Positions 1,241 through 26,062 of a stretch of DNA of 64,000 bases are shown here, in pieces. This DNA is from a virus. Taxonomy: Duplodnaviria; Heunggongvirae; Uroviricota; Caudoviricetes. The notes below the pieces were generated by a model. That model was not told where the DNA came from. It saw only the letters and a program-made list of their open reading frames with translations, and searched no databases. A program made the translations under genes and the position numbers. Where the stretch lies: IMG/VR virus record IMGVR_UViG_3300028833_000126, positions 716-64,715 of that record; one strand, given 5' to 3'. Numbering within the stretch: the first letter of the stretch is position 1; each line of letters begins with the position of its first letter.

Positions 1241-1299
1241 ACTTCACCCCTCCTTTCTGATAAATATCAACATGGTTGTGATGCGTTTAGCAGCACTTT

Positions 1300-1530
1300 C
1301 GACCTACTTTTGCGGTGCTTAGAGAGGCCCACAAAGACCAAAAAGCGTCTCTTGAAAGGAGAAGAAAAAAGAGACAGGATACTGTGCCTATCCGAACATG
1401 TCTTGTGGGCCCGTCTAAGCACCGCAGGGGATAAAAGACCTCTCAAAAATCGACCCCCCGGAGAATTTTCGAGGGCAAGCGCGATGACAGAGGGGAGCGC
1501 ACACTCGAGACCCCCCGGGGGTACTCTGGA
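1300..1530. other. GC-rich structured non-coding region with long inverted and direct repeats (candidate cos/pac or structured RNA)
   Basis: GTGCTTAGAGAGGCCCACAAAGAC (1311-1336) against GTCTTGTGGGCCCGTCTAAGCAC (1397-1420), about 22-bp inverted repeat; GACCCCCCGG direct repeat at 1452 and 1510. Confidence 0.45.
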
Positions 1531-1679
1531 TTATGTCTCTACAGGGTGTTTTCCAAATTGGAGATTCAAAAGAAGTCTTGAAAAGATCATAAAGCGCTGT
1601 AAAAATTTCTCCTTTTTAAATTCTTGGTGAAACTTTTAGAGATTCACCGGGTCTCTGTAAATATTTTTCGGAAAGTCAA

Positions 1680-2117
1680 TCAGTTTTCGTCAGCAGATTT
1701 TTCTTTTTCTTCATCAGCTTCTTCAATTTTCGTTTCAGAATTTTGGAGATTCGCTGCGCTCTCAGAAAAATCGTCTGAATTTTCGTTGGAATTTGTGAGT
1801 TTCTGCAAGCCAACAATCGGTTTCTGCAACTGACTTGCTTGCTTTTCTTCAAATTCTTCGAGTTTACTTTTGGAGATTCGCACTTTCTTATAAATGTTCA
1901 TGAAATCGTACTTAATGATTTCATCGATCGCATTCTCAACTGCTTTTTCTCGTTCTTCATCAGACATTTCATCAGAAATATTGGAGATTCGATCGAGATA
2001 AGCGCAAGAATGATAGCCTTTTTGGTTGTCGTAATTGAACCAGCTATCGAACTGCGTAAACGGATCGTAGGGATTATCGACAGTCGTCAACGCTACCGAA
2101 TAAATTTCGTCGTCCAT
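1680..2117 (-). CDS. hypothetical acidic protein
   Basis: ORF 1680..2135 trimmed to MDDEIYSV preceded by AAAGGAGAAAGTG. Confidence 0.5.
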   Translation of the reverse strand: MDDEIYSVALTTVDNPYDPFTQFDSWFNYDNQKGYHSCAYLDRISNISDEMSDEEREKAVENAIDEIIKYDFMNIYKKVRISKSKLEEFEEKQASQLQKPIVGLQKLTNSNENSDDFSESAANLQNSETKIEEADEEKEKSADEN

Positions 2118-2131
2118 CACACTTTCTCCTT

Positions 2132-5008
2132 TCAATCTAAGTATTTCACGACAGTGGAGGTTGAAATGCCGATTGCTTCTGCGATCTCGCCGTTTGTGTA
2201 ACCGGAATCCTGCATTGCCTTGATCTTCGCTATCTTAGCATCGGAGATTGAGCGTGTAGCTTTGGGTGTTGCATAATTTCGGATGACATCACCGTCTGCA
2301 TACTTCAGGATCTTCATCAGGTCATTTTCGGAGATTGCGCCGTTCTGGATTGCTTCCCACTCATCTTCGGACACAGAAATGCCGGATCGCTTTGCTCCGG
2401 TCTCTCTTCTCGCTTTCGTCAGTTCCTGCTGTGCAATCTTCTGTCGTTCTTTCTTCGACAAATCAGGATTCTCTTTTGCGATTTTGGAGATTCGTGCGTT
2501 TGCAACTAGCTGAGCTTGACGTTCTCTCGGAGCATTCTGTTCTGCGACGTTGAGCTGCGCCTGTAAGTGTTCCACTTCTTTGGCATACTTTTCGACAGCT
2601 TCTTTTGTTTTCTGAATTCTGCCAGTTGTAACGTACTCTTTTCGAGCATCGTTCGCCAAAGATTTCATGGAATTTGCGTAGTCTGCATACAGGAGCTCAA
2701 TTGGAGATCTGCCTTTGGAGACAAGCTGCATAGCATCGTCTGCTACAGCCATCTTCGTGGTCTTGATTGTACGGGTCTGGAGCTTCCCTTTGCTGTCCAC
2801 ATAGGTCTCGGGCTCCTTGCTTGTGTCCCAATACAACTTTCCCGTCTCCGGATCGATCTTCTGCATCCCCCGGTATTTCGGAACTCTGGCATCGGATTTT
2901 GCGGAAGAGATGATCGTAGCAGCACCAGTAGAGTACCGCCCATCCTCCGTATAGTGCCCCTGCCATCTGTTCTTAAGAGCGGGGATGTCGTTGTCGATCT
3001 CGGACTGTTTATAGTCCAGCTTATGCTTCGGAGCGTCGATAACAACCATGGAGTGTCGGACAGCTTTTGCAAGCTCCTCCGGACCAGCGCCCCCGATTGT
3101 CATGTCGGTAATGAGGTTAGAGACCCTCCCCATTTGCTGCTGCTTTTCGGCCTCAGACATAACTTTGAATTCATGCCCGTTGCGATAATAATGGAGATTC
3201 CCCTTATCATCCCTCCGACTCTCCGTATAACTATAATTGTCCTTCGGATCGAAGCCTTTAAGCCCCGGAAGTTCGGGAGTAGATGTAATGTTGGCCCGTC
3301 CGGAGAGCGGAATGACCATGACGGTATCCCCATCAAAGTCTGCTCCGGAGAGTCGCTCTGCAACTTTGGAGTTAATGCCTACGGCATCCATCGCATTCGG
3401 AGTGATAACTCTCTTGGCCTCCTCATTCTTGTCCGTAACCTTCAGGATCGGAATTTCGAATGTGCCCCCATGAGGATAACGAACAAGCGCTACCTTCTCG
3501 CCGGGTCGGAAATTAGGTGCATACACCTCGTCGTCCTTGAGCGAAGTGATCGGAAGGATTACCTGATAGCTCTGCCTCGGAAGTGCCGCAGCTTTCAGAT
3601 GAACAGCCGCCTTATCGCAGTCGTTTGCGAAGTTGATGAGCAGGTGCTTCTTGACTGTCGGATTGGTCAGAGCGGAGATCTCTTCGAACTCTGCCTGCTT
3701 ATCGATCTTAGCCAGCCGGAGCTGCTGCTCAACGAGCTTTCGGTTCTGTTTAGAGAGGAACTGGGACGGAAGATCGTGGCTCCACTCTCCCCAGTCGCCT
3801 TCGGCAGCGCGCTTGTTGATGACGGAGAGCTGCTTTTCACCGTTCTTATCGATGTAATATCTTTGTCCGCCCATGATAGGCGCATTCGGATCCGTCGGAT
3901 CTTCAATGCCTTCCTTGATGAGCGAGCCGAACGGGTTGTTCGGATTCTTCGTATCGATCGGCTTGAGAACACTCTTTGCGTCCTTCGTTGCACCCATCAT
4001 GGGAACAGACGAATTCTTGTTTGTGTTAAATATCAAGTCGACTCCGGGCGGAAAGTCCTTATCATCTCCGTAAACAGCCATACCCTTGATGTAATGCGTA
4101 CCATCAACAAGAATCCGGACCTGAGCATAAGTGGAGTTGCCGAGAGAAATATCTTCCGGCCCTCTCCGAATCTCAACGACACCGTCCTTGTCCTTGCCGC
4201 TCGGTTCCTGATCTGCATAACGAATCATGACACGCTTCGAATCAAGGGACTTCGGATATACCCAAGCCGGACGATACGTTTCGCCTCCGTCATCGGAGAT
4301 CATCTCGCCAACCTGACTGATTGCACCGTAGTTGTAAATATCTTTCTTCTCGGATCCGGGAGGGCACACCACCTTGAGCGTGGTCATCATGCCCTTATTC
4401 GTTGCCTGAGGAACTCGTCCGCCATAAGTCGGATAACCCTCCATCTCAAGAATCATCAGCGCATTATCAAGTGTGTTTCTCGTCACGCCGAGTCTTCGCT
4501 CAACATTCACGCCGACGTCAATCATGCCCTTGGAGTCGATTTCGGTCTTCAGATACTTTGCCGTATTGTAGGCAGAATTCATTCTCTCCTCAGACTTCGT
4601 GTTGAGAAGCGAACGGACCGTGGATTCGTTCAGTCCCATCTTCTCACCGATCTCGGTTGCACCCATTCCGCGCTCTTTCATACTCTTTGCCTGTTCAACA
4701 AGAATTGCGCGGCGATAGTTCTTTGCAACGGAGAGCTGCGAACGGAGCTTGGACGGAGACGGTTCTCCTTTGTAGTTGAGAATATCCAGCTCACGGGCAA
4801 TCTCGGACTCTGTCATACCCTTGGATTTCATCGAGTTGACACGGGAGATGAAGTCGCCGGTTCTCTGATACGGATTCTCACCAGAACCCCACGGATACCG
4901 TCCGGAGCGTCTCGGCATGCCGTAATGCTGCAAAATATCAATTTCACACTCGTCGAGGATCTCTCCCGTATGTTCATCCACGACGATGTTTTTGTCTACT
5001 TCAATCAT
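2132..5008 (-). CDS. YonO-like single-subunit RNA polymerase (two double-psi beta-barrels) with N- and C-terminal sigma-r4-like HTH modules
   Basis: beta-prime-like motif VALVRYPHGG...ITPNAMDAVG...GADFDGDTVMVIPL (compare NRAPTLHR...NADFDGDQMAVHVPL) at about aa 505-568. beta-like GGRVPQATNKGMMT (compare GRHGNKG) at aa 196-209 and PGVDLIFNTN...VPMMG. HTH repeats at aa 60-135 and aa 935-958 (GYTNGEIAEAIGISTSTVVKYL). RBS AGAGGAGGAAT. Confidence 0.6.
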   Translation of the reverse strand: MIEVDKNIVVDEHTGEILDECEIDILQHYGMPRRSGRYPWGSGENPYQRTGDFISRVNSMKSKGMTESEIARELDILNYKGEPSPSKLRSQLSVAKNYRRAILVEQAKSMKERGMGATEIGEKMGLNESTVRSLLNTKSEERMNSAYNTAKYLKTEIDSKGMIDVGVNVERRLGVTRNTLDNALMILEMEGYPTYGGRVPQATNKGMMTTLKVVCPPGSEKKDIYNYGAISQVGEMISDDGGETYRPAWVYPKSLDSKRVMIRYADQEPSGKDKDGVVEIRRGPEDISLGNSTYAQVRILVDGTHYIKGMAVYGDDKDFPPGVDLIFNTNKNSSVPMMGATKDAKSVLKPIDTKNPNNPFGSLIKEGIEDPTDPNAPIMGGQRYYIDKNGEKQLSVINKRAAEGDWGEWSHDLPSQFLSKQNRKLVEQQLRLAKIDKQAEFEEISALTNPTVKKHLLINFANDCDKAAVHLKAAALPRQSYQVILPITSLKDDEVYAPNFRPGEKVALVRYPHGGTFEIPILKVTDKNEEAKRVITPNAMDAVGINSKVAERLSGADFDGDTVMVIPLSGRANITSTPELPGLKGFDPKDNYSYTESRRDDKGNLHYYRNGHEFKVMSEAEKQQQMGRVSNLITDMTIGGAGPEELAKAVRHSMVVIDAPKHKLDYKQSEIDNDIPALKNRWQGHYTEDGRYSTGAATIISSAKSDARVPKYRGMQKIDPETGKLYWDTSKEPETYVDSKGKLQTRTIKTTKMAVADDAMQLVSKGRSPIELLYADYANSMKSLANDARKEYVTTGRIQKTKEAVEKYAKEVEHLQAQLNVAEQNAPRERQAQLVANARISKIAKENPDLSKKERQKIAQQELTKARRETGAKRSGISVSEDEWEAIQNGAISENDLMKILKYADGDVIRNYATPKATRSISDAKIAKIKAMQDSGYTNGEIAEAIGISTSTVVKYLD

Positions 5009-5568
5009 GCCGATTCCTCCTCTGTACGAATTTCTTCAATAAGATTGTCGAATTCTACGATTTTGTCCATAACGTCACGGATTGTCTGAGCAGAGGGCGT
5101 GTAGATCAGAATCTGACAGTTCTGATAAATCCTCAGCTCCATTTGAATGTCTTCCGGATCGACGTCATACTCCAAACAGAAAAGAGCCGCGTAAATATAA
5201 AGCTGCTCTTCATGTGCCGGAATAGATCCGCTCTTGTAATCATGAATGCGAAGAAAACCGTTCTCAAAGAGAATCGCGTCCGTCGTGCCGAAACAGTTGC
5301 GGGAGTAATATAAAGGCTGCTCTGCTGTCATGCCGAAGTCTACGGCATCGTTGACATACATATTGAGCGTGTCTTTCTTTCTCGCAAGTTTCTGCTTCAT
5401 GCGGATGCACTCTGCTGCGAATGCGTGTTTCTTCGATCCTTCTTCAGCCGCAAAATATCCATGGAACACTTCAGCCATCCGTGCAGGACTGTAGCGGACC
5501 CAGTGATACTTTGATGCGGAGAGGAAAGCATGCTTGCCTTCAATCTCAGAATGCTTGTTGAAGTGCAT
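5005..5568 (-). CDS. PD-(D/E)xK nuclease (Cas4/RecB-like fold)
   Basis: GTTDAILFENGFLRIHDYKSG matches the GxxD...(D/E)YK signature of the PD-(D/E)xK family; start overlaps the RNAP gene (ATGA). Confidence 0.5.
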   Translation of the reverse strand: MHFNKHSEIEGKHAFLSASKYHWVRYSPARMAEVFHGYFAAEEGSKKHAFAAECIRMKQKLARKKDTLNMYVNDAVDFGMTAEQPLYYSRNCFGTTDAILFENGFLRIHDYKSGSIPAHEEQLYIYAALFCLEYDVDPEDIQMELRIYQNCQILIYTPSAQTIRDVMDKIVEFDNLIEEIRTEEESA

Positions 5569-5851
5569 TCAGTACCTCCTCTCGGTTCTCAGGAAATATA
5601 AAGGCAGCGAATGACATGTCATTCATCTTCCCCACCCAATAGTCCTGATTCTGCCGATGACTTGCTCCAGCACTCCTTTTGCACTCGAGCATTGCCCAAT
5701 GTTCCCCATAATACATTGTAATGTCGGGGAACCCGTCCTTCAGTCCGGTTGCGTTTTTCATAACCACACAGCCGGGGAACCGCTCTTCCAGTTCATGAAT
5801 CACTTCTGACTGAAAGCGGCTCTCTTTCTTGTTTTGCCCTTTCTTTGCCAT
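5546..5851 (-). CDS. VRR-NUC domain nuclease
   Basis: GFPDITMYYGEHWAMLECKRS matches the VRR-NUC GxPD...ExK signature; RBS AAAGGAGAAAAATA. Confidence 0.55.
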   Translation of the reverse strand: MAKKGQNKKESRFQSEVIHELEERFPGCVVMKNATGLKDGFPDITMYYGEHWAMLECKRSAGASHRQNQDYWVGKMNDMSFAAFIFPENREEVLNALQQAF

Positions 5852-5912: not shown

Positions 5913-5943
5913 TCTTCATAAAAGAGAATGCATTTTTCGCGTA
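5913..5943 (-). promoter_or_regulatory. conserved promoter-like element (TCGCG-class), copy 1
   Basis: Minus strand: ACGCGAAAAATGCATTCTCTTTTATGAAG, upstream of the nuclease-RNAP operon. Confidence 0.5.
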
Positions 5944-6449
5944 AAAATCGGTCAAAAAGAAAAATGCGATGACCGATTCGCGAAGTTATCCTTTGCAACA
6001 CAGATATGACCTGCCGCCAGGAGGAACCCTGTCAGAATATCCATAATGACGGCAGATGCATACTTGTGTTGTGCGCAGCGTCGACACCACATGCAAACGC
6101 AATAGCGCCGAAGTCCAGACAAGAGACATCTATTGGGAGTTGGTCAGATTATACTGTCCGATGGTGAGGACGTGTAGGCTCGTTTAAAGAATCCCATAAA
6201 TATCAATCTGACACGGATGTCGCTGTCATATACCCGACACTCGGTGCGGTATTCAGAAAGTGACTTGGCGTGCATAGCACAGATCCTAAGATCAGTTCTG
6301 AAATATCCATGACACTACGCTGACGTTATCCGTAGAAAGGATGAAAGAACGGACAGCGTCATGTGCTTCAATCTCATTTTTATTCAAGGAGGTATTTCTG
6401 TCCGTGGAATAAAAAATAAGAGAAGAGAATAAGCACAGTTTTCTATCTT

Positions 6450-6480
6450 CTCTCATTACAGAGAATGAAATTCTCGCGAC
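6450..6480 (-). promoter_or_regulatory. conserved promoter-like element, copy 2
   Basis: GTGTCGCGAGAATTTCATTCTCTGTAATGAGAG. Confidence 0.5.
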
Positions 6481-6521
6481 ACACTTGCTCGATCTAAAAT
6501 ATCCATAGACAAAAAAAGAGA

Positions 6522-6539
6522 AGACGCTTATTCAGCGTC
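6522..6539 (-). terminator. hairpin terminator (GACGC-TTATTCA-GCGTC) plus T-tract
   Basis: Stem-loop followed on the minus strand by TTCTCTTTTTTTGTC; overlaps the 3' end of the 6528 gene. Confidence 0.5.
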
Positions 6540-6776
6540 CTCATCCTTTTCGGTTTCCGATTCGTCTTCTTCTTCCTCGGTAGTTTCTCCGTCGAAGATC
6601 TCATTCTCTTCCGTTGCTTCGTCAGCTTCCTTCGCCGCCTTGAGAGCTTTCCGCTTCTCGAGGACAGTGCCGGCGCCCATCCCAATGATGAACACCGCAG
6701 TGCCTGCGATCACTTTCGCTCCCGCTACGACGATATTCTTGCTTTCCTTCAGCACGTCGCTCATAAATTTCTTCAT
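6528..6776 (-). CDS. small membrane protein with acidic C-terminal tail
   Basis: 82-aa ORF, one TM helix then an E/D-rich tail; RBS AAAAGGAG; driven by the promoter motif at 6818-6848. Confidence 0.5.
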   Translation of the reverse strand: MKKFMSDVLKESKNIVVAGAKVIAGTAVFIIGMGAGTVLEKRKALKAAKEADEATEENEIFDGETTEEEEDESETEKDEDAE

Positions 6777-6817: not shown

Positions 6818-6848
6818 TTCCATTAAGACACATGAAAATTTCGCGACG
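6818..6848 (-). promoter_or_regulatory. conserved promoter-like element, copy 3
   Basis: TCGCGAAATTTTCATGTGTCTTAATGGAAC. Confidence 0.5.
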
Positions 6849-6959
6849 ACAAAATCGATCTCTAATTGCCTTGAACTACTCTCTCAGCCGTGCCAAAATA
6901 TCTTGCCGAAAACGGATCAGAGACGGATCAAAAATGCACTGAAAATCACCCCAAAAATC

Positions 6960-7270: not shown

Positions 7271-7558
7271 ACTAAATTTTTTCGCCATGAAAAGTGCAAA
7301 ATATCACGCCCAAATCCTCAACTAATTTTCGAGATCTAACCTAGAATAGCGCCGCCATTTCCCCTGTTCAAAATATCAACCTGACCCGCGTCGCACACTT
7401 CGAAATTTTACTCTAACAACTTAGAGTATTGTATTTCTCGGAGCGAATGAGAGTCGAATTCTGAGCCTGTCCTGCGCCAGACACTCACCGCAGACCCAAG
7501 CAATGAATCAAAAAGAAAGAGCCAACGCTTAAGTCGCGTCGACCCAATCTCGTAAGTC

Positions 7559-7947: not shown

Positions 7948-7977
7948 CTCCATATAATGCAATGAATTCTACGCGAC
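7948..7977 (-). promoter_or_regulatory. conserved promoter-like element, copy 4
   Basis: TGTCGCGTAGAATTCATTGCATTATATGGAG. Confidence 0.5.
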
Positions 7978-8022
7978 ATCTCGCCAATTCAAATATCAAT
8001 CCGCACAAAAAAAAAAAGAGAA

Positions 8023-8039
8023 GACGCTGTGTTAGCGTC
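8023..8039 (-). terminator. hairpin terminator (GACGCT-GTGTTA-GCGTC)
   Basis: Followed on the minus strand by a T11 run. Confidence 0.5.
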
Positions 8040-8334
8040 CCTCATTCTTTTCATTTAAATAGTTTACGAGTTCTCCCTTCATCGCTATTCTATAAATATC
8101 AATGCCATCAGATGCAAATCTGTTAACCCGACCACGCATTTCAAAGAGTTCATCTGTCAGCCCAATATACTCAGGCGAATAGCCAACCATAAATAATATC
8201 GTCTTCATGACGCAGTTAATAAAGTTGCGTGTCACTCTTACAATAAATACTGGTAAAGCTATTGCTAGAGATAATGTAGCCACAATGAGCCCAATTCCAA
8301 CGCGAATCAGTTTCTTGATTGCTTTCATTGTCAA
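8032..8334 (-). CDS. membrane protein
   Basis: 100 aa, N-terminal TM segment, RBS AAAAGGAGATTTG. Confidence 0.5.
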   Translation of the reverse strand: MTMKAIKKLIRVGIGLIVATLSLAIALPVFIVRVTRNFINCVMKTILFMVGYSPEYIGLTDELFEMRGRVNRFASDGIDIYRIAMKGELVNYLNEKNEGR

Positions 8335-8364
8335 ATCTCCTTTTACAAATAGTTAATTTATAGA

Positions 8365-8396
8365 GTCTCCTCACAAATATCCATGTAATCCACGCG
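8365..8396 (-). promoter_or_regulatory. conserved promoter-like element, copy 5
   Basis: ACGCGTGGATTACATGGATATTTGTGAGG. Confidence 0.45.
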
Positions 8397-8410
8397 TCTT
8401 CTACAACCCC

Positions 8411-8445
8411 TCTACAAGCCTCTACAAGCCTCTACAAGCCCCATC
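8411..8445. repeat. tandem direct repeat CTCTACAAGC x3
   Basis: cctctacaagcctctacaagcctctacaagcc, immediately upstream (in the transcription direction) of promoter copy 5. Confidence 0.6.
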
Positions 8446-8580
8446 ATCCCTTACCAGTATAACTCTACACCTAAAAACTGTACGATTGCAAATTAGGGGC
8501 CTTCTCGAAGCTCACAGAGGCCTTCTAGAGCCATACATCTGACAAATATCAATTCTTTATAAAAAAGAAAGAGGGCATGT

Positions 8581-8793
8581 TTAGCCCCCGATCTTCTTCT
8601 GATGTTCCTCATACTCTTCTCTCTCCTTTTCCACAGAACGCACGGTCGATTCCTTGAGCCCGAGAATGTCTGCAATCTCGATATAGCTGAAACCACGTTC
8701 TCTGAGCTTACGTACAGCTCTCCCGATCATGGTCTGCATCTTTCTCTTAACTGCTGCAATCTTGTTTCTCATTCCAATGATTTCGTTTGCCAT
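8581..8793 (-). CDS. small HTH DNA-binding protein (sigma-r4/LuxR-like)
   Basis: GFSYIEIADILGLKESTVRSV shares the HTH module seen in the RNAP N-terminus and in the 29758 and 30209 genes. Confidence 0.55.
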   Translation of the reverse strand: MANEIIGMRNKIAAVKRKMQTMIGRAVRKLRERGFSYIEIADILGLKESTVRSVEKEREEYEEHQKKIGG

Positions 8794-8834
8794 TGTTTTG
8801 TCTCCTTTTTCAAGTTAAGAATTTAAGGAATTTC

Positions 8835-8863
8835 TTCCACAAATATCCATGAATTCTACGCGT
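8835..8863 (-). promoter_or_regulatory. conserved promoter-like element, copy 6
   Basis: ACGCGTAGAATTCATGGATATTTGTGGAAG. Confidence 0.45.
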
Positions 8864-9090
8864 CCCAAAACAGTAAAAAGAAAGAGCAGACGCAGAATCC
8901 GCGCCCACTCTCTCAATTTTTTACTTCCCATACCTCTTTTCGTTCAGGTCGATAACCTTCTGGATCCGATCTTTCACTTCTTCGAGTTCTTCGCATCTTT
9001 CCCTTACGATCTCGTATTCCTTCTGAGAACCGATCATCATGCTCATGTCCATTCTTCCGACATACTCGCACTTGTCGAGCCGCTCTTCGC

Positions 9091-9324
9091 TTACACCGTC
9101 TTGAACATTTCTTCCTCAAATTCCAAGAGCTCCTCCTTATGAAGAACCCACAGAATATCGTACTTGTCAAGCCCAGTCAAACTAGCAATTTTATCATAAG
9201 AATTGCCCTGCTCATACAAGAGTTTGGCAGTTTCTTCTTTGTGCTTTGGAATAGCCTCGTACTTTTTCTCAGAAATATAAGCCGTCAGCTCAACAATGTT
9301 CGCGAGGGTGAACAGAATATCCAT
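9091..9324 (-). CDS. small HTH-like protein
   Basis: GNSYDKIASLTGLDKYDILWVL HTH-like segment; RBS GGAGATG. Confidence 0.45.
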   Translation of the reverse strand: MDILFTLANIVELTAYISEKKYEAIPKHKEETAKLLYEQGNSYDKIASLTGLDKYDILWVLHKEELLEFEEEMFKTV

Positions 9325-9327
9325 TTT

Positions 9328-9660
9328 TCATCTCCACATCGCCGACATATATTTCGGCTCATACTTAAGACTTACCGTTGTCTTGAAGCCGTACTCAGAA
9401 TCCGTCCACACGATTGCGGGATCACCAAAACTATCGCATCCAAGCACCTCGTCCAGCATATATCCCCGCTCGTCAATCCAGACATAGGCATTATCCCCTT
9501 CAAGACTTACGCTCGGATGGAATCTCTCAGGTATCTCAACATCGATGAATTTGATTATCCCATCTTGCTCACGATTGAGAGAATAGTGCTTCCTCAGCGT
9601 GTAGAACTCCCTCTTGCCATCTCTCGAGAAGTCCTCATGCATAACCAGTGTTACTTTCAT
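9328..9660 (-). CDS. hypothetical protein
   Basis: 110 aa; leader AAAGGAGAAACTGAAATG is shared with the two following genes. Confidence 0.5.
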   Translation of the reverse strand: MKVTLVMHEDFSRDGKREFYTLRKHYSLNREQDGIIKFIDVEIPERFHPSVSLEGDNAYVWIDERGYMLDEVLGCDSFGDPAIVWTDSEYGFKTTVSLKYEPKYMSAMWR

Positions 9661-9771
9661 TTCAGTTTCTCCTTTTTATACTGTTTGTTATAAAATATCC
9701 AATCAATAATGTAGCCAATCCAAGGCATCAGACACACTGCTATCACAAAGGCGGCTGACTCTAAAATATCC
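9655..9771 (-). CDS. possible 38-aa transmembrane peptide
   Basis: MDILESAAFVIAVCLMPWIGYIIDWIFYNKQYKKEKLK with a GGAG RBS; ATGA overlap with the 9328 gene; below the ORF-track cutoff. Confidence 0.3.
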
Positions 9772-9833
9772 ATGACTCCAACATATTGAGCCGCCCAGTT
9801 CCTTATTGCACTTACAATGATCGGCAAGAGCAC

Positions 9834-10181
9834 TTATCTCAACTCCTCAACCCCAGCGCCACTCCGTACCAAATCGCCAATCTTCTCAGCATCAATATGG
9901 TACAGCACAGTCGCCTTCTGCTGATCGATCGTATCAATGCCGTAGGTTGAAATATAAAGCGGGTCAACCACGCCAACTCCGGTCTTGAGCTGAAGCAGTC
10001 TGTAGAAATTCGAGTCAGCAAAGAGTACGATGTAATGCCGATACTCAAATCTCTGATCAGTCCAGTCGTCTTCCGGAGTGTACAGCTTGAATTTCATGAG
10101 AATCAAGTCTCCGGGCTTGTACTTCGGGATTTTGTAGATCTCATCTTCGTGCTTATCAACTTCAGGCAATGTAACTTTCAT
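9834..10181 (-). CDS. hypothetical protein
   Basis: Trimmed to MKVTLPEV preceded by AAAGGAGAAACTGAA. Confidence 0.5.
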   Translation of the reverse strand: MKVTLPEVDKHEDEIYKIPKYKPGDLILMKFKLYTPEDDWTDQRFEYRHYIVLFADSNFYRLLQLKTGVGVVDPLYISTYGIDTIDQQKATVLYHIDAEKIGDLVRSGAGVEELR

Positions 10182-10206
10182 TTCAGTTTCTCCTTTCAAA
10201 TATTGA

Positions 10207-10518
10207 TCACCATAAGTCAATCGTCTTTCCAAAAATCTCCTCCAAGACATTAGATAAACGAACTACATCATTTCGCTCAGAACTTGTATCAACAAAATCA
10301 CTACTTGCTTCATTTATTAGTTCACAAGCATTGTAGTACATCTTGAGGCATCTTTCCAATAACTTAAATTGCTCATTTGTGAACAGAACACCTTTCTCTC
10401 TTATTGCATCATCAACAACTTCTTCAACAGGAATCGGATAATGTTCATATAGCCAACCCTTCTCTTTCCAGTATTCGACAAACGACTCGGCATCGAGGTA
10501 TCTCTTCTCCTCATCCAT
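10207..10518 (-). CDS. hypothetical protein
   Basis: Trimmed to MDEEKRYL preceded by GAAAGGAGAAACTGAA. Confidence 0.5.
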   Translation of the reverse strand: MDEEKRYLDAESFVEYWKEKGWLYEHYPIPVEEVVDDAIREKGVLFTNEQFKLLERCLKMYYNACELINEASSDFVDTSSERNDVVRLSNVLEEIFGKTIDLW

Positions 10519-10554
10519 TTCAGTTTCTCCTTTCAAATATAAAAAGAAAGAGGT

Positions 10555-10571
10555 GATGCTTATTCAGCATC
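10555..10571 (-). terminator. hairpin terminator (GATGC-TTATTCA-GCATC)
   Basis: Followed on the minus strand by CTCTTTCTTTTTATATTT. Confidence 0.5.
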
Positions 10572-10880
10572 GTCCTCAGTCTCCTCGGCCTCTTCGACCG
10601 TCTCTCTTTCTTGAATCTGTTTCAAAATCTTCTTGCAGTTTCTCTTCCATTTGATGTCTGCGATTACCCGCTTAGCATACGGAACGCCGATGAAAACCAC
10701 TGCCATATAGCCAGCAAAGATGTAAAGCCCTCTGTTATAGCTCCAAGCCCTAATATTTTGTGTATCCGCAAGATACTTGGCTGCCTCTTCACGAGAGCGT
10801 CCACCCTTGACGAGCATCTTCGTCAGTGTCTTCTCACCGAGTTTCCAATCGTTTAACTTTTCACCGATCTCATACAACAT
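10560..10880 (-). CDS. membrane protein
   Basis: Trimmed to MLYEIGEKL preceded by TATGGAGGTACATC; TM helix GLYIFAGYMAVVFIGV. Confidence 0.5.
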   Translation of the reverse strand: MLYEIGEKLNDWKLGEKTLTKMLVKGGRSREEAAKYLADTQNIRAWSYNRGLYIFAGYMAVVFIGVPYAKRVIADIKWKRNCKKILKQIQERETVEEAEETEDDAE

Positions 10881-10908
10881 AATGATGTACCTCCATAAAA
10901 ATGATTTT

Positions 10909-10946
10909 GGAAATGATTCCATTATACTGCATGTTATTTACGCGAC
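10909..10946 (-). promoter_or_regulatory. conserved promoter-like element, copy 7
   Basis: TTGTCGCGTAAATAACATGCAGTATAATGGAATCATTTCC. Confidence 0.5.
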
Positions 10947-10957
10947 AAAATATCAAT

Positions 10958-11030
10958 TAGGGGCGAAGGGACTCGAACCCTCAACCAACTGCGTATAAGA
11001 CAGGTGCTCTAACCATTGCGCTACGCCCCG
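10958..11030 (-). tRNA. tRNA with anticodon UAU (reads AUA, Ile-type), phage-encoded
   Basis: Minus-strand cloverleaf: acceptor GGGGCG/CGCCCC, D-arm GCGC-AATGGTTA-GAGC, anticodon stem CCTGT/GCAGT with loop CTTATAC (TAT at plus 10995-10997), T-arm GAGGG-TTCGAGT-CCCTT. A few mismatches, no encoded CCA. Confidence 0.55.
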
Positions 11031-11042
11031 TTATTGACTTAC

Positions 11043-11282
11043 TTATTCGTCTGTCGGGCCTTTAATGTAATCATGCACACGATTCGCTGCCTTTTTAAGC
11101 ATCCAGAACGGAAGCCATAAAGCACCAGCAATGACAACCACGGGCCATGTCACAGCAAATCCAAAGTTGTCTACTTCATCCCACTCGCTATTGTGAATCA
11201 CGCATAAGACAAAGTAGACGCCAAATGCGATGAAAATATAAATCCCCAAGACTATGAGAACGGCTTTACTGCATGTGCTCAT
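11043..11282 (-). CDS. membrane protein (2 TM)
   Basis: 79-aa hydrophobic ORF, translationally coupled to the upstream gene. Confidence 0.5.
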   Translation of the reverse strand: MSTCSKAVLIVLGIYIFIAFGVYFVLCVIHNSEWDEVDNFGFAVTWPVVVIAGALWLPFWMLKKAANRVHDYIKGPTDE

Positions 11283-18171: not shown

Positions 18172-18914
18172 TTTTCTCCTTTAAACAGATAGTCTTCATT
18201 TCCAAAATCGATATGCCGAATGAGTTTGCAGGTGTCAAAAATATAATTTTTATCCTTATTGGTAACTCGATACTCATAGCCCGGCGTCTCTTCTTTATCG
18301 AAATGCACCACTTGAATATACTGACGATTCGTGTAACTCTTCTCCAAGGTCATGAAATATGTGTCCTCGATCACATCGTGAAACACGTCTCCTGCAAAGA
18401 AGTGATTGACCTTTGCATTACAATATTCATGCGGTTCATTTCCTTTCTTGACCGCTTTTTCTTTTCTATCTGTTTCTTCCTGCACCTTGGCGAAGAACTC
18501 CTTGAGATCGAACCATTTGTCTTTCGTGATGTTGCCGATTTTCGTAATAGTTCCGCCCCAACCGTCATTCAATACGCATCGGACATATTTGCCTTCAAGG
18601 TCTTCCCATTTGTCAACGCCGACCGTGTTCATGATCCGCATCATTGCTTCAAGTCCGGCTCCGGAACCTTTGAAGAAGTCGTCGTCAGCGTCCAAATATC
18701 CATTCCCGATGACATAGCCGCCAATACTGCATCCCCATCCACCACCTTGAACGGTAATCCAGAATGTCAGCACTCCATGATCAGCCATGGTAATTGAGGT
18801 GCTTGTGATCTTTGCATTCAGAATCTCAGTTTCCATCTTTGTCCTCTCTCCCTTTGTAATACATCTCGAAGCTTGAGGTCCAGCCGCTGTTGTTTTCTGT
18901 TTTGAGAACTCCAT
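18168..18914 (-). CDS. hypothetical protein
   Basis: 248-aa ORF. Confidence 0.5.
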   Translation of the reverse strand: MEFSKQKTTAAGPQASRCITKGERTKMETEILNAKITSTSITMADHGVLTFWITVQGGGWGCSIGGYVIGNGYLDADDDFFKGSGAGLEAMMRIMNTVGVDKWEDLEGKYVRCVLNDGWGGTITKIGNITKDKWFDLKEFFAKVQEETDRKEKAVKKGNEPHEYCNAKVNHFFAGDVFHDVIEDTYFMTLEKSYTNRQYIQVVHFDKEETPGYEYRVTNKDKNYIFDTCKLIRHIDFGNEDYLFKGEK

Positions 18915-19239
18915 TGCAGAACAATCTCAAATATCCACACGGCAGACAGTCGATTTTCCATCCAATGACCGGTCTATGGGTCGGAATAGGTTTTCCGCCG
19001 TAGTCACCATATCCGCCGATACCATCGATATGCAGAATATCAGCAACATCTTTGGACAGCCAGCAGATAGGATGGCAGTCTTTGTCTACGGCAACGAAGC
19101 CCATGATGCGATAACCGCTATCATGCAACTCACGCTGAGGGACGATCACAATAGAATGAAACTCGAGATCTTCATTGCCAGTAGGCTTCACCGGCACCTC
19201 GTAGAATTCCCTCTTTTTCATTTCCTGCACAGTTTTCAT
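18826..19239 (-). CDS. hypothetical protein
   Basis: 137-aa ORF. Confidence 0.45.
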   Translation of the reverse strand: MKTVQEMKKREFYEVPVKPTGNEDLEFHSIVIVPQRELHDSGYRIMGFVAVDKDCHPICWLSKDVADILHIDGIGGYGDYGGKPIPTHRPVIGWKIDCLPCGYLRLFCNGVLKTENNSGWTSSFEMYYKGREDKDGN

Positions 19240-19281
19240 TTACATTTTCTCCTTTCAGTCTCTTTTCTTATTTTACGTTCT

Positions 19282-19551
19282 TCAGAGCAATATATGCCGA
19301 ATCTCTTCTTCACATACCATATTGAATCGATCACCGAGATAGTCGCCAAGATCGTAAGTATCAAGGTAATTAAAGAGATTACCATCATAATCTTCAGGTA
19401 GAATCGCTAGAATTACGTTTTTAAACTCCTCCTCGACTCGATCGGTGTAATCCCAAATATCTTCACCTCTCTCGGGCTTTGGCAAATCGAGCGAATCAAG
19501 AAGCTTCTTGTTTTCTTCAATTTTCTTATAGTACTCAGTCTCACTCATCAT
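19282..19551 (-). CDS. hypothetical protein
   Basis: Trimmed to MMSETEYY preceded by GAAAGGAGAAATAAAA. Confidence 0.45.
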   Translation of the reverse strand: MMSETEYYKKIEENKKLLDSLDLPKPERGEDIWDYTDRVEEEFKNVILAILPEDYDGNLFNYLDTYDLGDYLGDRFNMVCEEEIRHILL

Positions 19552-19596
19552 TTTTATTTCTCCTTTCAATTTCTTAGAAAATATCAAAAAGAGAAA

Positions 19597-19616
19597 GAGG
19601 CTATGTTTCAAGCCTC
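19597..19616 (-). terminator. hairpin terminator (GAGGCT-ATGTTTCA-AGCCTC)
   Basis: Followed on the minus strand by TTTCTCTTTTTGATATTTTC. Confidence 0.5.
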
Positions 19617-19663
19617 GATCTCTTTTCTTGTTTTACATTTTTTTTTCGGATCAATTTACGAAC

Positions 19664-19771
19664 TTATTCAGCGCTCTTTTTCCCGTTAGGATAGACTTCG
19701 CCGTAGCCCCTCTCTGCAAATTCTCCGACAATATCATCAGGAATGTCCGCATTCAGACCGAGCTCATCCAT
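19664..19771 (-). CDS. possible 35-aa acidic peptide
   Basis: MDELGLNADIPDDIVGEFAERGYGEVYPNGKKSAE in an otherwise ORF-free 190-nt gap; weak RBS. Confidence 0.25.
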   Translation of the reverse strand: MDELGLNADIPDDIVGEFAERGYGEVYPNGKKSAE

Positions 19772-19812
19772 GATCACGGACAATCTCGTGACGTCTTCCC
19801 AATTATGTCATA

Positions 19813-19995
19813 TTAAGAATAATTTACCATTAGTGCAACGCCAATCATGATAAGAATGAGACAGCCAATGTTGACGTAATACGTAGGATCAAAGTCTTTA
19901 CCGAGCCCAGAGCCGCAAATAATACAAGACCCAATACATCCTATAGCCATCATAATGAAGCCGACAACCGCTCCAAGTTGAACTGTAATATCCAT
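19813..19995 (-). CDS. small membrane protein
   Basis: 60 aa, two TM helices, Cys-rich. Confidence 0.4.
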   Translation of the reverse strand: MDITVQLGAVVGFIMMAIGCIGSCIICGSGLGKDFDPTYYVNIGCLILIMIGVALMVNYS

Positions 19996-20729
19996 TATTT
20001 CTCACTCACCTTATTGCATCCTCCCCATGCCCAATCCGGATAAGAGAGTACACCATTCTCATCCAGATCGAACATAGAGAAGTCCTGATAGTTATTTATC
20101 GAATAATAAGACGCGCCAATCTGATATGCTGGTGTTGACCATGTAGAACTGTGATACCATCCACTTCGATAGTTCTGCACTCTGAAGTCGGACAAATATC
20201 CATTCCACCAAACGTCCCACCAGATAGCACGCACAAGATCAGTTGGCTCTGCATCCGGTGTCCAGAGTCTCGTATTTGTTTCGAGGAATCCATGACTATG
20301 AGTTACACCCCACAAGCTTGTTCCCCAGTCATCGTAACCGCCAACGACCTGACAGTAGAGCAGCCGCTTCAAGTCTACTTCAACGTGAGCCCGAATATCT
20401 GCCTCACTTTCTCCACCGGCCTCAAGCATGATCTTGCGGATAGCCTCTTCAATTTCCCATCCAGTTGCTGTTGCTCCATGCGAGTCTGTATAGATCTCAT
20501 CACTGGTTACAACCGGCAATGTAACGACGTGTCCATTCTCGAGGATCACATCGCCATATTCGTTGTAGACAGGTTCCACAGCTTCGGCATGAGCTCCTTC
20601 TACGATCATCGTGCAGAAGAGCCAGAATCCAACCGCGAAGAAGAATACCATGAGACCAAGCTCGAAAATATCCTGTATAAGGTTGATTACGGAATGCTTT
20701 GTTCTGTTGAGTTTGTGAATGTTCATCAT
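19995..20729 (-). CDS. membrane-anchored extracellular protein, possibly a SleB-like cell-wall hydrolase (tentative)
   Basis: N-terminal TM; SHGATATGWEIEEAIRKIMLEAGGESEADIRAHVEVDLKRL loosely resembles the SleB/Hydrolase_2 motif; Trp/Tyr-rich C-terminus. Confidence 0.35.
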   Translation of the reverse strand: MMNIHKLNRTKHSVINLIQDIFELGLMVFFFAVGFWLFCTMIVEGAHAEAVEPVYNEYGDVILENGHVVTLPVVTSDEIYTDSHGATATGWEIEEAIRKIMLEAGGESEADIRAHVEVDLKRLLYCQVVGGYDDWGTSLWGVTHSHGFLETNTRLWTPDAEPTDLVRAIWWDVWWNGYLSDFRVQNYRSGWYHSSTWSTPAYQIGASYYSINNYQDFSMFDLDENGVLSYPDWAWGGCNKVSEK

Positions 20730-20749
20730 TTGTGAATTCCTCCATTTTT

Positions 20750-20992
20750 TTACTCTTTATGACTATTGATTGAACCGTTTATAAGTCCTGCGATCCCGGC
20801 AAGCAGTGTCGATAATGTCCCGACAGCATACGGAACGGCGACAGGAATGAATGCTTTCCAGATCGGAATATCAATCACCCCGCAAAGTCTCAGCGTGAAG
20901 AGAATCAAAGAGACCGCAGCAAGGAAGTCAACGACTCTATCTCCAAACGGTCTCTTGATGTATTTAGTGTTTTTATCATTCTGATTAGACAT
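20750..20992 (-). CDS. membrane protein
   Basis: Trimmed to MSNQNDKN; two TM helices. Confidence 0.45.
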   Translation of the reverse strand: MSNQNDKNTKYIKRPFGDRVVDFLAAVSLILFTLRLCGVIDIPIWKAFIPVAVPYAVGTLSTLLAGIAGLINGSINSHKE

Positions 20993-21326
20993 GTGCATTC
21001 CCTCTCTCAAGCCGATCATTCCAGCGTTTGATCTTCGCTTCGGCAATTGTCTCGATTCTGTCGTAAATATCATAATCGACAGAGTCTTTGAGATCCTGCA
21101 TCAGAGCATCAGCTGCGACTGTTACGTCGGAATACTCCTCAATAACAGAGTTGATGGCTTCTTCTTCTGTAATTGTACAGGGATTGCCGTTGCCTTCTGC
21201 TCTCACAAGTTTCAGACAAGCCTTAGCGAGCTCATTGCACTCTTCCGAGAGCTGCTCCAGTCTTGCCCGACGTTCGAGCTTCTTGTAAATATCATTGATC
21301 GTCTTGTCATGCATTTCTGTATCCAT
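20985..21326 (-). CDS. MazG-like nucleotide pyrophosphohydrolase (tentative)
   Basis: 113 aa all-helical; EECNELAKACLK and EEYSDVTVAADALM resemble the paired ExxE/ExxD metal-binding motifs of the MazG/HisE family. Confidence 0.4.
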   Translation of the reverse strand: MDTEMHDKTINDIYKKLERRARLEQLSEECNELAKACLKLVRAEGNGNPCTITEEEAINSVIEEYSDVTVAADALMQDLKDSVDYDIYDRIETIAEAKIKRWNDRLERGNAHV

Positions 21327-21331
21327 ATAGG

Positions 21332-21679
21332 TTATTCCTCCTTGTGGTTTATAATGTTTTTATCAATCCGTCCATTAAGTGTAATCTCAATTCTGGGGTC
21401 AAGACACACATGGATAGGCAGGTTGTCTGCATAGAGCGTTTCTTCATCGTATGACTGCGTTATGCTCGACACGATGCCTTTGAAGGGGATTAATATGACC
21501 AGATCTTTGTCCTTTACGGCCTTGAATACAATTTCGACTTCATTTGGTCTAAAAATATCATCGAGATTGAACAGCTCTACTTCATTTGCATAACGGACTT
21601 TTGTGTTGCAGTATTCACAATATCCATCCGCTCGTAACGGAGCTCCACAGTTCGGACAATTTGTTAGAAGTCTATTCAT
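21332..21679 (-). CDS. zinc-ribbon protein
   Basis: N-terminal CPNCGAPLRADGYCEYCN. Confidence 0.45.
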   Translation of the reverse strand: MNRLLTNCPNCGAPLRADGYCEYCNTKVRYANEVELFNLDDIFRPNEVEIVFKAVKDKDLVILIPFKGIVSSITQSYDEETLYADNLPIHVCLDPRIEITLNGRIDKNIINHKEE

Positions 21680-22005
21680 TTATTGCCTCCCAACATCTCT
21701 TGTCTAAACGTATCTTGCTCAGCCATCAATCGATCCATGCTCTCAAAGAATTCCTTCTTCATTGCTTCATAGATCACTTCTTTGATGTGCTCTCTGTTCT
21801 TGATAATGTACACTAAAATATCATTGAATAGCATAAGTTGATACTTATTCAGGCATAGATCTTCATCATTCTCAAGAACAGATTTCATTGCCAGAAGCAT
21901 TACTATACAATCGGTAGCTTTGGCTGTCACAGCATAATCGATTGTGCCTGCAAGTGCTTTGCGCTGCTTATCGTTTAATGTTTCATAAACCTCTTTGTAG
22001 TCCAT
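21676..22005 (-). CDS. hypothetical protein
   Basis: 109-aa ORF. Confidence 0.45.
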   Translation of the reverse strand: MDYKEVYETLNDKQRKALAGTIDYAVTAKATDCIVMLLAMKSVLENDEDLCLNKYQLMLFNDILVYIIKNREHIKEVIYEAMKKEFFESMDRLMAEQDTFRQEMLGGNK

Positions 22006-22014
22006 ATTGACTCC

Positions 22015-22452
22015 TTAAAGATGGCATACCAGTATCTCAATATCGAGATCGCTGAATACTTCTTTGATCATTGTGCTTACCTTATTCCAGTCGAGCCGAT
22101 CGAGTCCGCATCCAATCTTCGGCATTGCGAGATAGTGAATATCAAGTTTCTTGCATTGGTCTCGCATGTCTTCCAGAGCAGAATGTAAAGACTCGTAAGT
22201 CGGCTTGTCGTAATGATGTACTTTTGTGACTAAGTTGAAGGTACGTCCAACAAGAAGAGCTTTACCAATATACTTAGATTCTTCCCCTTTTTGAATCGGA
22301 TAGAGCTGCATAAGCCAATATTTCATATCCATCTTATCATCAAACTCTCTCGCGATCCCAGCCCCAAGAGTATAAGCACCGTTGATGCAATGCGCAAGAT
22401 GATAGAAAGCAGGGACCTCAAATAGATCTTTTTTAACTTCTTGATAAGTCAT
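22015..22452 (-). CDS. macro-domain protein (ADP-ribose binding/hydrolase)
   Basis: HCINGAYTLGAGIAREF (compare NAAN..L.GGGV.GAI) and LAMPKIGCGLDRLDW (compare AFPAISTGIYGYP) match the two macro-domain signature regions. Confidence 0.5.
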   Translation of the reverse strand: MTYQEVKKDLFEVPAFYHLAHCINGAYTLGAGIAREFDDKMDMKYWLMQLYPIQKGEESKYIGKALLVGRTFNLVTKVHHYDKPTYESLHSALEDMRDQCKKLDIHYLAMPKIGCGLDRLDWNKVSTMIKEVFSDLDIEILVCHL

Positions 22453-22459
22453 AACATCC

Positions 22460-22699
22460 TCACAGTTTGTCTAGCTCAGAAATATCAATATGTCCGATCT
22501 TTTTATATCTCTGACTAAGCTCGCTTTTCGTAAAAGTAATTTGAGTTGTACTGTAAGTCCACCATGCTGATCCTTCAGACCATCCGGTATTATACAAGCA
22601 GAGTGCATCAGTCGCTTCTTCATTATCATTGTAAATCTGAACAATTAGCACGGTATAGGGATTGCAGGGAATGTCCCAAATATCACCGACTTCAGGCAT
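22460..22699 (-). CDS. hypothetical protein
   Basis: 79-aa ORF. Confidence 0.4.
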   Translation of the reverse strand: MPEVGDIWDIPCNPYTVLIVQIYNDNEEATDALCLYNTGWSEGSAWWTYSTTQITFTKSELSQRYKKIGHIDISELDKL

Positions 22700-23883: not shown

Positions 23884-23917
23884 ACTTATTCTCCTTTCAA
23901 ATATCAATCATGCAAAT

Positions 23918-24187: not shown

Positions 24188-24202
24188 ATCTTCTTTCTCC
24201 TT

Positions 24203-24505: not shown

Positions 24506-24507
24506 CG

Positions 24508-25349: not shown

Positions 25350-25374
25350 TTATTTATCCTTTCTTTTTTTTTTT

Positions 25375-25707: not shown

Positions 25708-25758
25708 TCTTATTTACTCTCCTTTCAAAAATATCAAAAGAAAGAGAAGAGACCCTGT

Positions 25759-25989: not shown

Positions 25990-26020
25990 TGTTAAATACC
26001 TCCATGAAATTTTTGAGTGT

Positions 26021-26050: not shown

Positions 26051-26062
26051 AATTGCAGAATA

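Follow-up and report, generated by a model that had tools for sequence, protein, structure and literature searches.

Single-chain RNA polymerases (RNAPs) built on two double-psi beta-barrels include the eukaryotic RNA-silencing enzymes QDE-1 of Neurospora and RDR2 of plants as well as a set of phage enzymes. The characterised phage members (YonO of SPbeta, gp64 and gp96 of P23-45, and gp66 of the crAss-like phage phi14:2) are all DNA-dependent, and QDE-1 is reported to copy DNA as well as RNA. In SPbeta the late operon is transcribed by YonO, which starts just downstream of yonO; gp64 and gp96 each have a promoter motif of their own, that of gp96 being AT-rich and located before pre-early genes. 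How minimal enzymes of this kind find promoters is an open question, left unresolved in the YonO paper. We examined a 64,000-nucleotide stretch of a tailed-phage genome (IMG/VR record IMGVR_UViG_3300028833_000126, positions 716 to 64,715; hereafter the window), in which a reading of the DNA letters without database searches (the sequence-only reading) had pointed to a gene at 2132-5008, minus strand, for a YonO-like RNAP fused to helix-turn-helix (HTH) modules. The gene belongs to a large, experimentally uncharacterised family found in abundant gut prophages and in phages of many culturable hosts. New here is an oriented, multi-copy element that accompanies the polymerase across two phyla and makes the promoter question testable.

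ORF calling over the window returned the predicted gene as an ATG-initiated open reading frame (ORF) of 958 codons on the minus strand, and its product is almost certainly a two-barrel RNAP, as judged chiefly from structural models. A full-length AlphaFold2 model from 32 sequences had a predicted local distance difference test score (pLDDT) of 67, with residues 235-412 below 50, and its Foldseek matches, weak at E ~2e-3, were exclusively two-barrel RNAPs. A core model, covering residues 150-800 and built from a 76-sequence alignment that included homologues from FP_oengus and the actinophage clade, reached a pLDDT of 86.3 and a predicted template-modelling score of 0.73, with every segment at least 50. 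Its long Foldseek matches in the PDB were single-chain two-barrel RNAPs only: QDE-1 (E 5.7e-9), Thielavia QDE-1 (E 3.4e-8), gp62 of P74-26 (E 1.4e-7), RDR2 (E 5.6e-7) and phi14:2 gp66 (E 9e-3). No YonO entry was present among these PDB matches. The sequence-only reading had claimed one chain holding both barrels, and had feared for that claim either the lack of such a fold or a DFDGD motif of Toprim type; neither materialised, and the Foldseek matches rule out a Toprim or other fold behind DFDGD.

The catalytic residues expected of the class are in place. Conservation was read from the same 76 sequences, which are 46-97% identical to the window polymerase, and across phyla from seven isolate phages representing two bacterial phyla. 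The beta-prime-like barrel (residues 480-570; 3299-3571, minus strand) has six strands in the core model, at 480-486, 494-496, 505-509, 521-524, 542-545 and 562-569. It carries the two stretches first proposed as beta-prime signatures, VRYPHGG with R510, P512 and H513 and GADFDGDTV with D557, D559 and D561, and all six residues are invariant in 76 of 76 sequences and in the seven isolate phages. R510 and P512 precede D557 by 47 residues, which gives the Arg-x-Pro signature of the two-barrel superfamily, and the DxDGD signature (D557-F-D559-G-D561) lies in the loop preceding strand 562-569. The same invariant Arg-x-Pro is found as R446/P448 in Rpb1 and as R962/P964 in QDE-1 (PMC2919709).

Upstream lies the predicted beta-like barrel region (residues ~260-402; 3803-4229, minus strand), delimited by core-model strands at 260-263, 277-280, 294-301, 305-313, 325-328, 382-386, 392-394 and 398-402 and by conservation of D275-G276, R298, G303-T-H-Y-I-K308-G309 and P320-G-V-D-L-I-F-N-T-N330. 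The PGVDLIFNTN motif noted at the outset held up well, P320, G322, D324 and F327-N330 being invariant in the 76 sequences. The counterpart of bacterial GRHGNKG had been placed at residues 196-209, and here the alignment disagrees: T replaces K205 in 50 of the 76 sequences, invariance is limited to Q201 and T209, and this poor conservation rules the segment out as the beta-like motif. In the bacterial beta subunit the motif order is GRHGNKG...PVDIVLNPLG. The stretch G303-T-H305-Y306-I-K308-G309 is almost invariant, lies 11 residues upstream of P320, and appears a much better candidate because the order of GTHYIKG and then PGVD mirrors that of bacterial beta. The beta-like barrel of two-barrel RNAPs also contributes an Asp and two basic residues, D837/K979/K987 in Rpb2 and D709/R738/K743 in QDE-1 (PMC2919709). 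D275, R298 and K308, all invariant in the 76 sequences, are candidates for these positions, assigned from the alignment rather than by superposition on QDE-1 or Rpb2; the D275-K308 spacing is 33, against 34 for D709-K743.

Two long connector helices (residues 423-469) join the barrels in the core model. A further pair of long helices follows the catalytic barrel (residues 619-662; 3023-3154, minus strand; core-model helices 470-490 and 494-513), with M626-G627, S630-I633, D635-T637, H652-M654 and V656-A659 invariant across the seven phages, and by its position in the model this pair is a candidate for the bridge helix. The modelled domain order matches the layout of the single-chain QDE-1/RDR/YonO/gp64 class.

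Within that class, the resemblance to YonO proved to be one of architecture. Both proteins are single-chain two-barrel enzymes with an L-R-x-P-H motif followed after 43-47 residues by F/A-D-x-D-G-D, and both genes lie just upstream of late or structural genes. The suggestion that the window protein is YonO-like in the sense of family membership was dropped, since hhalign with a 32-sequence profile gave a probability of 0.2% and the best BLASTP E was 0.79, leaving no detectable homology. Judged from the core model, the nearest solved relatives are the QDE-1/RDR-type enzymes and the Thermus phage proteins gp62 and gp64. QDE-1 and RDR2 are 12-14% identical to the window polymerase and are not known to carry HTH modules. 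P23-45 gp64 and P74-26 gp62, non-virion RNAPs of ~590 residues (PDB 8F72, 8F5M), are 15% identical, belong to another phage lineage and gene context, and are described in a paper in which helix-turn-helix is mentioned 0 times.

These relationships bear on what the enzyme copies. That it makes double-stranded RNA from phage or host transcripts, as an RNA-dependent RNA polymerase, would agree with QDE-1 and RDR2 being its closest solved structures, with a weak match to the Pfam RdRP family, for which Koert et al. (bioRxiv 10.1101/842583) report an HHpred probability of 95.7% from a family alignment, and with the name that both PHROG 4291 and RefSeq use. We nonetheless hold it to be highly improbable: the name comes from a Pfam family title, not from an assay, every characterised phage member of the class is DNA-dependent, QDE-1 itself is reported to take DNA templates too, and three HTH modules of DNA-binding type argue for a DNA template. 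The polymerase is probably the DNA-dependent transcription enzyme of the phage.

The HTH modules lie at both ends of the chain, as had been proposed. Two of them, at residues 100-137 and 919-957, pass Pfam cut-offs, and a third, at residues 53-98, is weaker. The second N-terminal module (residues 100-140; 4589-4711, minus strand) matches HTH_IclR and Sigma70_r4_2 above cut-off at residues 112-137, and E128, S129 and R132 of its recognition helix are invariant across the two phyla. The C-terminal module (residues 919-958; 2135-2254, minus strand), with S951 and T952 invariant, matches HTH_23 (E 6e-8), with HTH_11, GerE and HTH_24 also above cut-off, and additionally PHROG 3855 'HTH DNA binding protein' and PHROG 836 'late transcriptional activator' (E 3.9e-6). 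The first module (residues 53-98; 4715-4852, minus strand) has predicted helices at 53-62, 67-73 and from 85 onward, internal similarity to the second, and G64 and I70 invariant in the seven phages. Sigma region 4, the label first given to them, is one among many HTH profiles with similar scores. Sigma70_r4_2 clears its cut-off of 25.7 with 26.5 bits, but Sigma70_r4 reaches only 21.1 against 24.1, the generic profiles HTH_23, HTH_IclR, HTH_11, GerE and HTH_24 score at least as well as, or close to, the sigma profile, and profile matches among PDB sequences (lambda cI, a resolvase and one ECF sigma) all had E >0.004.

Since HTH domains alone pass Pfam thresholds, and most GenBank and SEA-PHAGES records read 'helix-turn-helix DNA-binding domain protein', the gene might be taken for a transcription regulator in which DFDGD is fortuitous. 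Catalytic residues invariant over two phyla and the predicted fold contradict this, and we find it barely credible. The database names 'HTH DNA-binding protein' and 'RNA-dependent RNA polymerase' are both unlikely to describe the function.

N-terminal to the HTH modules, the seven-phage alignment revealed a conserved peptide, L-x-HYG-xx-R-x-SGRYPWGSG (residues 26-48; 4865-4933, minus strand), in which L26, H28, Y29, G30, R33 and S35-G43 do not vary between phages as distant as those of Lactococcus and Streptomyces. It is predicted to be disordered (pLDDT ~30) and could be a packaging, ejection or partner-binding signal.

The window protein is a fairly divergent addition, by sequence comparison, to a catalogued phage polymerase family. 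It matches PHROG 4291 ('RNA-dependent RNA polymerase') with E=0 and 1162 bits, residues 19-957 aligning to 5-905 of the 909 profile positions. Homologues occur in 250 isolate-phage records, 249 of them with query coverage of at least 80%; by the first word of the organism name these include Arthrobacter (95), Gordonia (55), Streptomyces (54) and Lactococcus (13), with further cases in Curtobacterium, Microbacterium, Rhodococcus and Faecalibacterium. An exhaustive hidden Markov model search found 3,731 representative clusters at 50% identity, 1,176 with E <1e-30, and among the best 150 of the 3,731 nearly all were 890-1090 residues long and spanned the N-terminal through the C-terminal HTH. The window polymerase is 36-48% identical to the isolate-phage members; its closest relatives (60-96%) come from gut metagenomes and from prophages in Ruminococcaceae, Lachnospiraceae and [Clostridium] symbiosum.

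The fusion of HTH modules to such an RNAP, which the sequence-only reading held would be new, is therefore the norm in PHROG 4291 and was already published. Koert et al. (bioRxiv 10.1101/842583; PCI Genomics-recommended) described the protein with HTHs at both ends and with YonO/crAss motifs including DxDGD, and proposed that it marks, as a signature gene, a group made up of actinophages and Firmicutes phages. In their shared orthologue blocks it is the sole HTH protein, with no separate conserved DNA-binding regulator. Ruprich-Robert and Thuriaux, surveying YonO-like proteins of firmicute phages, cited the paper on phage 1706.

The sequence-only reading had also linked the elements TTGTCGCG and TATAATGG to the enzyme, a good lead that opened onto a multi-copy, oriented, promoter-like element. 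Repeat finding followed by a position-weight matrix (PWM; threshold 14 bits, with shuffles as control) located 20 copies of a ~40-nucleotide element, every one on the gene strand, from 5.9 to 49.9 kb and with scores of 26-42 bits; shuffled sequences gave ~0. The gene-strand consensus is tttt[TA]CGCG[AT]A.AAtt.CAT-N6-[TA]TAATG[GA][GA]A, its invariant parts being CGCG, CA(T) seven bases on, and ATG inside T[AT]ATG[GA]; the TTG of a sigma-A -35 box is not conserved among the copies. In 18 of the 20 a detected ribosome-binding site and start codon begin 1-35 nucleotides downstream. The copies precede early/middle genes, replication genes and the polymerase operon itself, the last at 5914-5954 (33.6 bits by PWM, with a skeleton match) before the endonuclease-exonuclease-polymerase genes. 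The other PWM copies, likewise on the minus strand, lie at 6451-6491, 6818-6858, 7948-7988, 8369-8409, 8835-8875, 10917-10957, 26021-26061, 28335-28375, 33540-33580, 42747-42787, 44496-44536, 44897-44937, 45354-45394, 46126-46166, 46468-46508, 47009-47049, 47344-47384, 47635-47675 and 49837-49877.

The same element accompanies the polymerase in its relatives. We counted the skeleton CGC[GA]-N7-CA-N9-[AG]TG[AG] on the gene strand and the other strand of each phage and compared the counts with shuffle means. The window, whose host is probably a member of the Clostridia, has 20 and 0 (shuffle 0.23), 19 of them shared with the PWM set and one, at 59142, likely due to chance. The Faecalibacterium phage FP_oengus has 12 and 2 (shuffle 0.53), Rima of Streptomyces, with a locus of 60% G+C, 12 and 0 (0.70), ReqiPoco6 of Rhodococcus 12 and 2 (0.50), Kenosha of Gordonia 9 and 1 (0.63), and Mudcat of Arthrobacter 5 and 0 (0.37). 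Lactococcus phage 1706 has 1 and 0 of the strict skeleton (0.07) and 11 and 0 of a variant core, TTA[CT]A-N4-CTATA[GA]T[AG], a count made without shuffles that is 0 in all three controls; the variant C[AG]CA-TGTTTTACA-N4-CTATAGTAGA keeps the skeleton register. Three phages lacking the polymerase served as those controls and stand at chance level: SPbeta of Bacillus with 0 and 0 (0.10), phiC31 of Streptomyces with 0 and 1 (0.43), and Tuc2009 of Lactococcus with 1 and 0 (0.10). The element thus co-occurs with the polymerase across two phyla.

A wider sample points the same way. The exact actinophage version, with 18 specified bases, is found in 88 IMG/VR stretches; in those loci the skeleton occurs 359 times on the dominant strand and 6 times on the other, and the sole motif locus that extends far enough encodes the polymerase. 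The element is AT-rich even within the 60% G+C Streptomyces phage. Its downstream GAGACCCCTA block is conserved, and actinophage copies also keep the block that follows TATAAT (GAGACCCCTACG). Conservation beyond TATAAT typifies promoters read by phage single-subunit polymerases, but not those of sigma-70. An incomplete string search of the literature turned up no earlier description of the element, and the text of Koert et al. lacks the word 'promoter'.

Taken together, these data lead us to a slight preference for self-sufficient transcription of the phage by the window polymerase at its own repeated promoters. The enzyme would find them without a sigma factor, through its fused HTH modules, whose recognition helices keep E128, S129 and R132 as well as S951 and T952 across phyla, the promoters being the ~35-nucleotide elements of the form CGC[GA]-N7-CA-N9-[AG]TG[AG]. 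An HTH would recognise the upstream CGCG box, and melting and initiation would take place at the T/A-rich TAATG[GA] block. Whether the polymerase reads the conserved element through its own HTHs we judge to be evenly balanced. Because a copy of the element also precedes the polymerase operon, both in the window and in FP_oengus (where the equivalent copy, at 27676, precedes the nuclease-Cas4-polymerase genes), the first polymerase would need an outside source: molecules injected from the virion, or molecules arising from weak use of sigma-A-like copies by the host RNAP. Structural genes, which are free of the element, might be reached by read-through from the polymerase operon after the genome ends join. 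The complete proposal, a two-barrel RNAP with in-chain HTH promoter recognition, possibly virion-delivered, and reading a ~35-nucleotide promoter kept across phages of Lactococcus, Clostridia, Streptomyces, Gordonia, Rhodococcus and Arthrobacter, is put forward tentatively, at somewhat less than even confidence. If this holds, no two-barrel RNAP before it would have been shown to locate promoters unaided by a separate sigma or initiation factor, and comparative genomics would already have identified the cognate promoter; if confirmed, it would provide an orthogonal polymerase/promoter pair unrelated to T7.

Several observations weigh against this preference. A near-perfect TATAAT forms the downstream block in the window, Rima, Kenosha and ReqiPoco6, and several window copies have TTGTCG 16 nucleotides upstream of it, so that some copies at least could be used by the sigma-A holoenzyme of the host. 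Motif and polymerase are linked by correlation, which could reflect joint inheritance in one lineage, or some other conserved phage protein could be the binder; co-variation of HTH residues with the CGCG/CGCA/CACA box was not shown, seven phages being too few. Copies also precede small genes of early appearance, and an enzyme absent from the virion could not be the first to transcribe these. At the protein level, profile searches of PDB sequences with the single sequence and with 22- and 76-sequence profiles gave HTH proteins and no polymerase, and Pfam RdRP (PF05183) scored 14.0 bits against a cut-off of 23.8 (E 0.02, residues 547-675). Template and product specificity, moreover, cannot be read from the fold, QDE-1 being a case of an enzyme that copies both RNA and DNA, and we found no biochemical study of any family member in the literature.

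The TATAAT block in most copies, with TTGTCG at 16-nucleotide spacing in some, suits a different division of labour. The polymerase would be a YonO-style late enzyme, made from host-RNAP promoters and transcribing only the structural and lysis operon downstream of its gene; the elements would be host sigma-A early/middle promoters, and their extra blocks sites for a phage regulator, possibly the polymerase HTHs. YonO offers the precedent in its transcription of the SPbeta late operon from just downstream of yonO, and in the window and all its relatives the polymerase gene directly precedes the genome end and the genes for HNH, terminase and structural proteins. No PWM copy lies in the tail, lysis and structural region at 50-64 kb, the C-terminal HTH has its match to the 'late transcriptional activator' PHROG 836, and a copy before the polymerase operon is simple to explain with host RNAP. 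Yet it is CGCG that is conserved and not the -35 TTG, the blocks and their spacing are constant across two host phyla whose promoter preferences differ, the element remains AT-rich in high-GC phages, and in FP_oengus CTTTATGG replaces TATAATGG, so that the A required at -11 by factors of the sigma-70 type is missing. A distinct late-promoter motif was not found in the gap at 1241-1679, the window's one region of that kind. We regard a late-only polymerase as unlikely. Plain sigma-A promoters become a weaker account of the element given that TTG is not conserved and that FP_oengus has CTTTATGG.

One possible source of the first polymerase molecules is entry with the virion, in common with the virion RNAPs phi14:2 gp66, P23-45 gp96 and N4 vRNAP, with which virion delivery and early transcription from phage motifs may be shared. 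The fold of N4 vRNAP is unrelated, and unlike the genes for the virion RNAPs, that for the window polymerase lies in a replication module; its virion link is an annotation label of the 1706 homologue only. The depositors of EU081845.1 labelled ORF75, the 1706 homologue (8083-11172 of its stretch), 'structural protein', and gave the same label to two other small ORFs outside the morphogenesis module; on gp106 of ReqiPoco6 (GU580942.1; 3013-5733 of its stretch) the label was copied from 1706. Such labels in records from that laboratory reportedly derive from mass spectrometry of virions, and this one may reflect detection of the protein in particles; it hints at virion delivery, which we nonetheless consider doubtful.

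The polymerase is embedded in a conserved operon with two nucleases, as the sequence-only reading had stated; overlapping gene ends and family matches agree. The first gene, at 5546-5851 (minus strand), encodes a small endonuclease (PHROG 93 'endonuclease', E 7e-14). It is followed by a Cas4-family PD-(D/E)XK exonuclease at 5005-5568 (minus strand; PHROG 3953, E 3e-75; Pfam DUF2800 and PDDEXK_1), whose stop overlaps the polymerase start, and the polymerase stop codon is in turn overlapped by the operon's last gene, a 151-residue ORF at 1680-2135 (minus strand; PHROG 4303, E 4e-35). The order endonuclease, Cas4/RecB-like exonuclease, polymerase and small ORF is kept in FP_oengus, Rima, 1706, Mudcat, Kenosha and ReqiPoco6, the small ORF lying 3' of the polymerase in all six relatives examined. 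With HTHs at both termini and this nuclease-nuclease-polymerase order near HNH and terminase genes, the locus has the hallmarks of the PHROG 4291 family and of the actinophage/1706/FP_oengus lineage, with which it shares end-to-end homology, the HTH-core-HTH arrangement, the DxDGD and RxP motifs and an operon near the genome end.

Neighbouring nucleases and a helicase, together with the assignment of the polymerase to the replication module by Koert et al. (bioRxiv 10.1101/842583), raise the idea of a replication or recombination enzyme that lays down RNA primers or R-loops at HTH-recognised sites in concert with the endonuclease, Cas4 exonuclease and helicase. Two-barrel cores are reported to form DNA polymerases as well, PolD among them. 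The phage, however, already has a primase/helicase-DNA polymerase fusion of 1402 residues (34135-38343; PHROG 4210), so that a replicative role is not needed, PolD is absent from the fold matches, and some 20 oriented sites before a ribosome-binding site and start codon resemble promoters, not origins. A role in replication or recombination is very unlikely in our view; that of a replicative DNA polymerase is made unlikely by the separate polymerase gene and the missing PolD match.

Downstream of the operon, a 440-nucleotide non-coding gap (1241-1679, minus strand) with G+C-rich near-palindromic blocks CCCCCGGGGGGTC...CCGGGGGGTCG separates it from an ORF at 887-1240 and an HNH endonuclease at 475-903. 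In FP_oengus the genes that come after the nuclease-Cas4-polymerase block are those for HNH, the terminase and the structural proteins. The linear genomes of the actinophage relatives terminate 180-540 bp past the polymerase block, and ReqiPoco6 has an annotated 3' cos overhang just past it. Because actinophage genomes terminate near the same block, the gap may, by analogy, be a cos or genome-end region. A terminator-like hairpin lies within it at 1393-1372.

Three free-standing small proteins had been said to carry the same HTH module, and this applies to one of them. The ORF at 8581-8793 has as its best PHROG match the N-terminal HTH region of PHROG 4291 (E 3.8e-6) and aligns to the second HTH of the polymerase with 33% identity over 45 residues. 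The ORF at 29758-30273 (minus strand) has an N-terminal HTH of generic type, with weak similarity to sigma-70 region 4 and GerE, and that at 30209-30730 (minus strand) has no HTH match. These two ORFs overlap, are paralogues of ~170 residues (28% identity over 128), and could be accessory transcription factors.

The window as a whole has the gene content of a siphovirus or prophage, with 86 of 103 greedy ORF calls on the minus strand, and no nucleotide-level match among 50,697 phage records. Family matches identify a helicase (28340-29542), a Tn916-type integrase (47946-49262, minus strand), an amidase (52899-54197), and a tape-measure fragment, Dit and tail proteins at 54-64 kb. A canonical sigma-A promoter, TTGACA-N18-TATAAT, immediately precedes the integrase at 49262-49290 (minus strand); it is unlike the repeated element and suggests the coexistence of two classes of promoter.

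Terminator-like elements, each a hairpin plus a T-run on the gene strand, often stand just upstream of the promoter-like copies, among others at 6505-6545, 7510-7543, 8005-8045, 8875-8908, 10537-10577, 46497-46530 and 47369-47409; FP_oengus and Rima show the same alternation of terminator and promoter with hairpin sequences of their own. The window's sole Rfam match, a tRNA gene at 10958-11030 (minus strand, 55.9 bits), is immediately upstream of the copy at 10917-10957. The initiation-proximal part of the element in Rima (CCCTATAGTGAGA; 19714-27930 of its stretch) and in 1706 (CACTATAGTAGA; 18422-37336) resembles the T7 promoter core, CACTATAGGGAGA. The polymerases being unrelated, this is probably convergence.

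Between the early region and the DNA polymerase, three paralogous PHROG 2152 genes stand in a row (39818-40786, 41427-42239 and 43244-44044, minus strand). Five direct repeats of ~52 nucleotides at 50457-51096, with spacings of 66, 111 and 345 nucleotides, fall inside the ORF at 50431-51390, indicating a repeated protein domain in a 319-residue protein near the lysis and tail genes.

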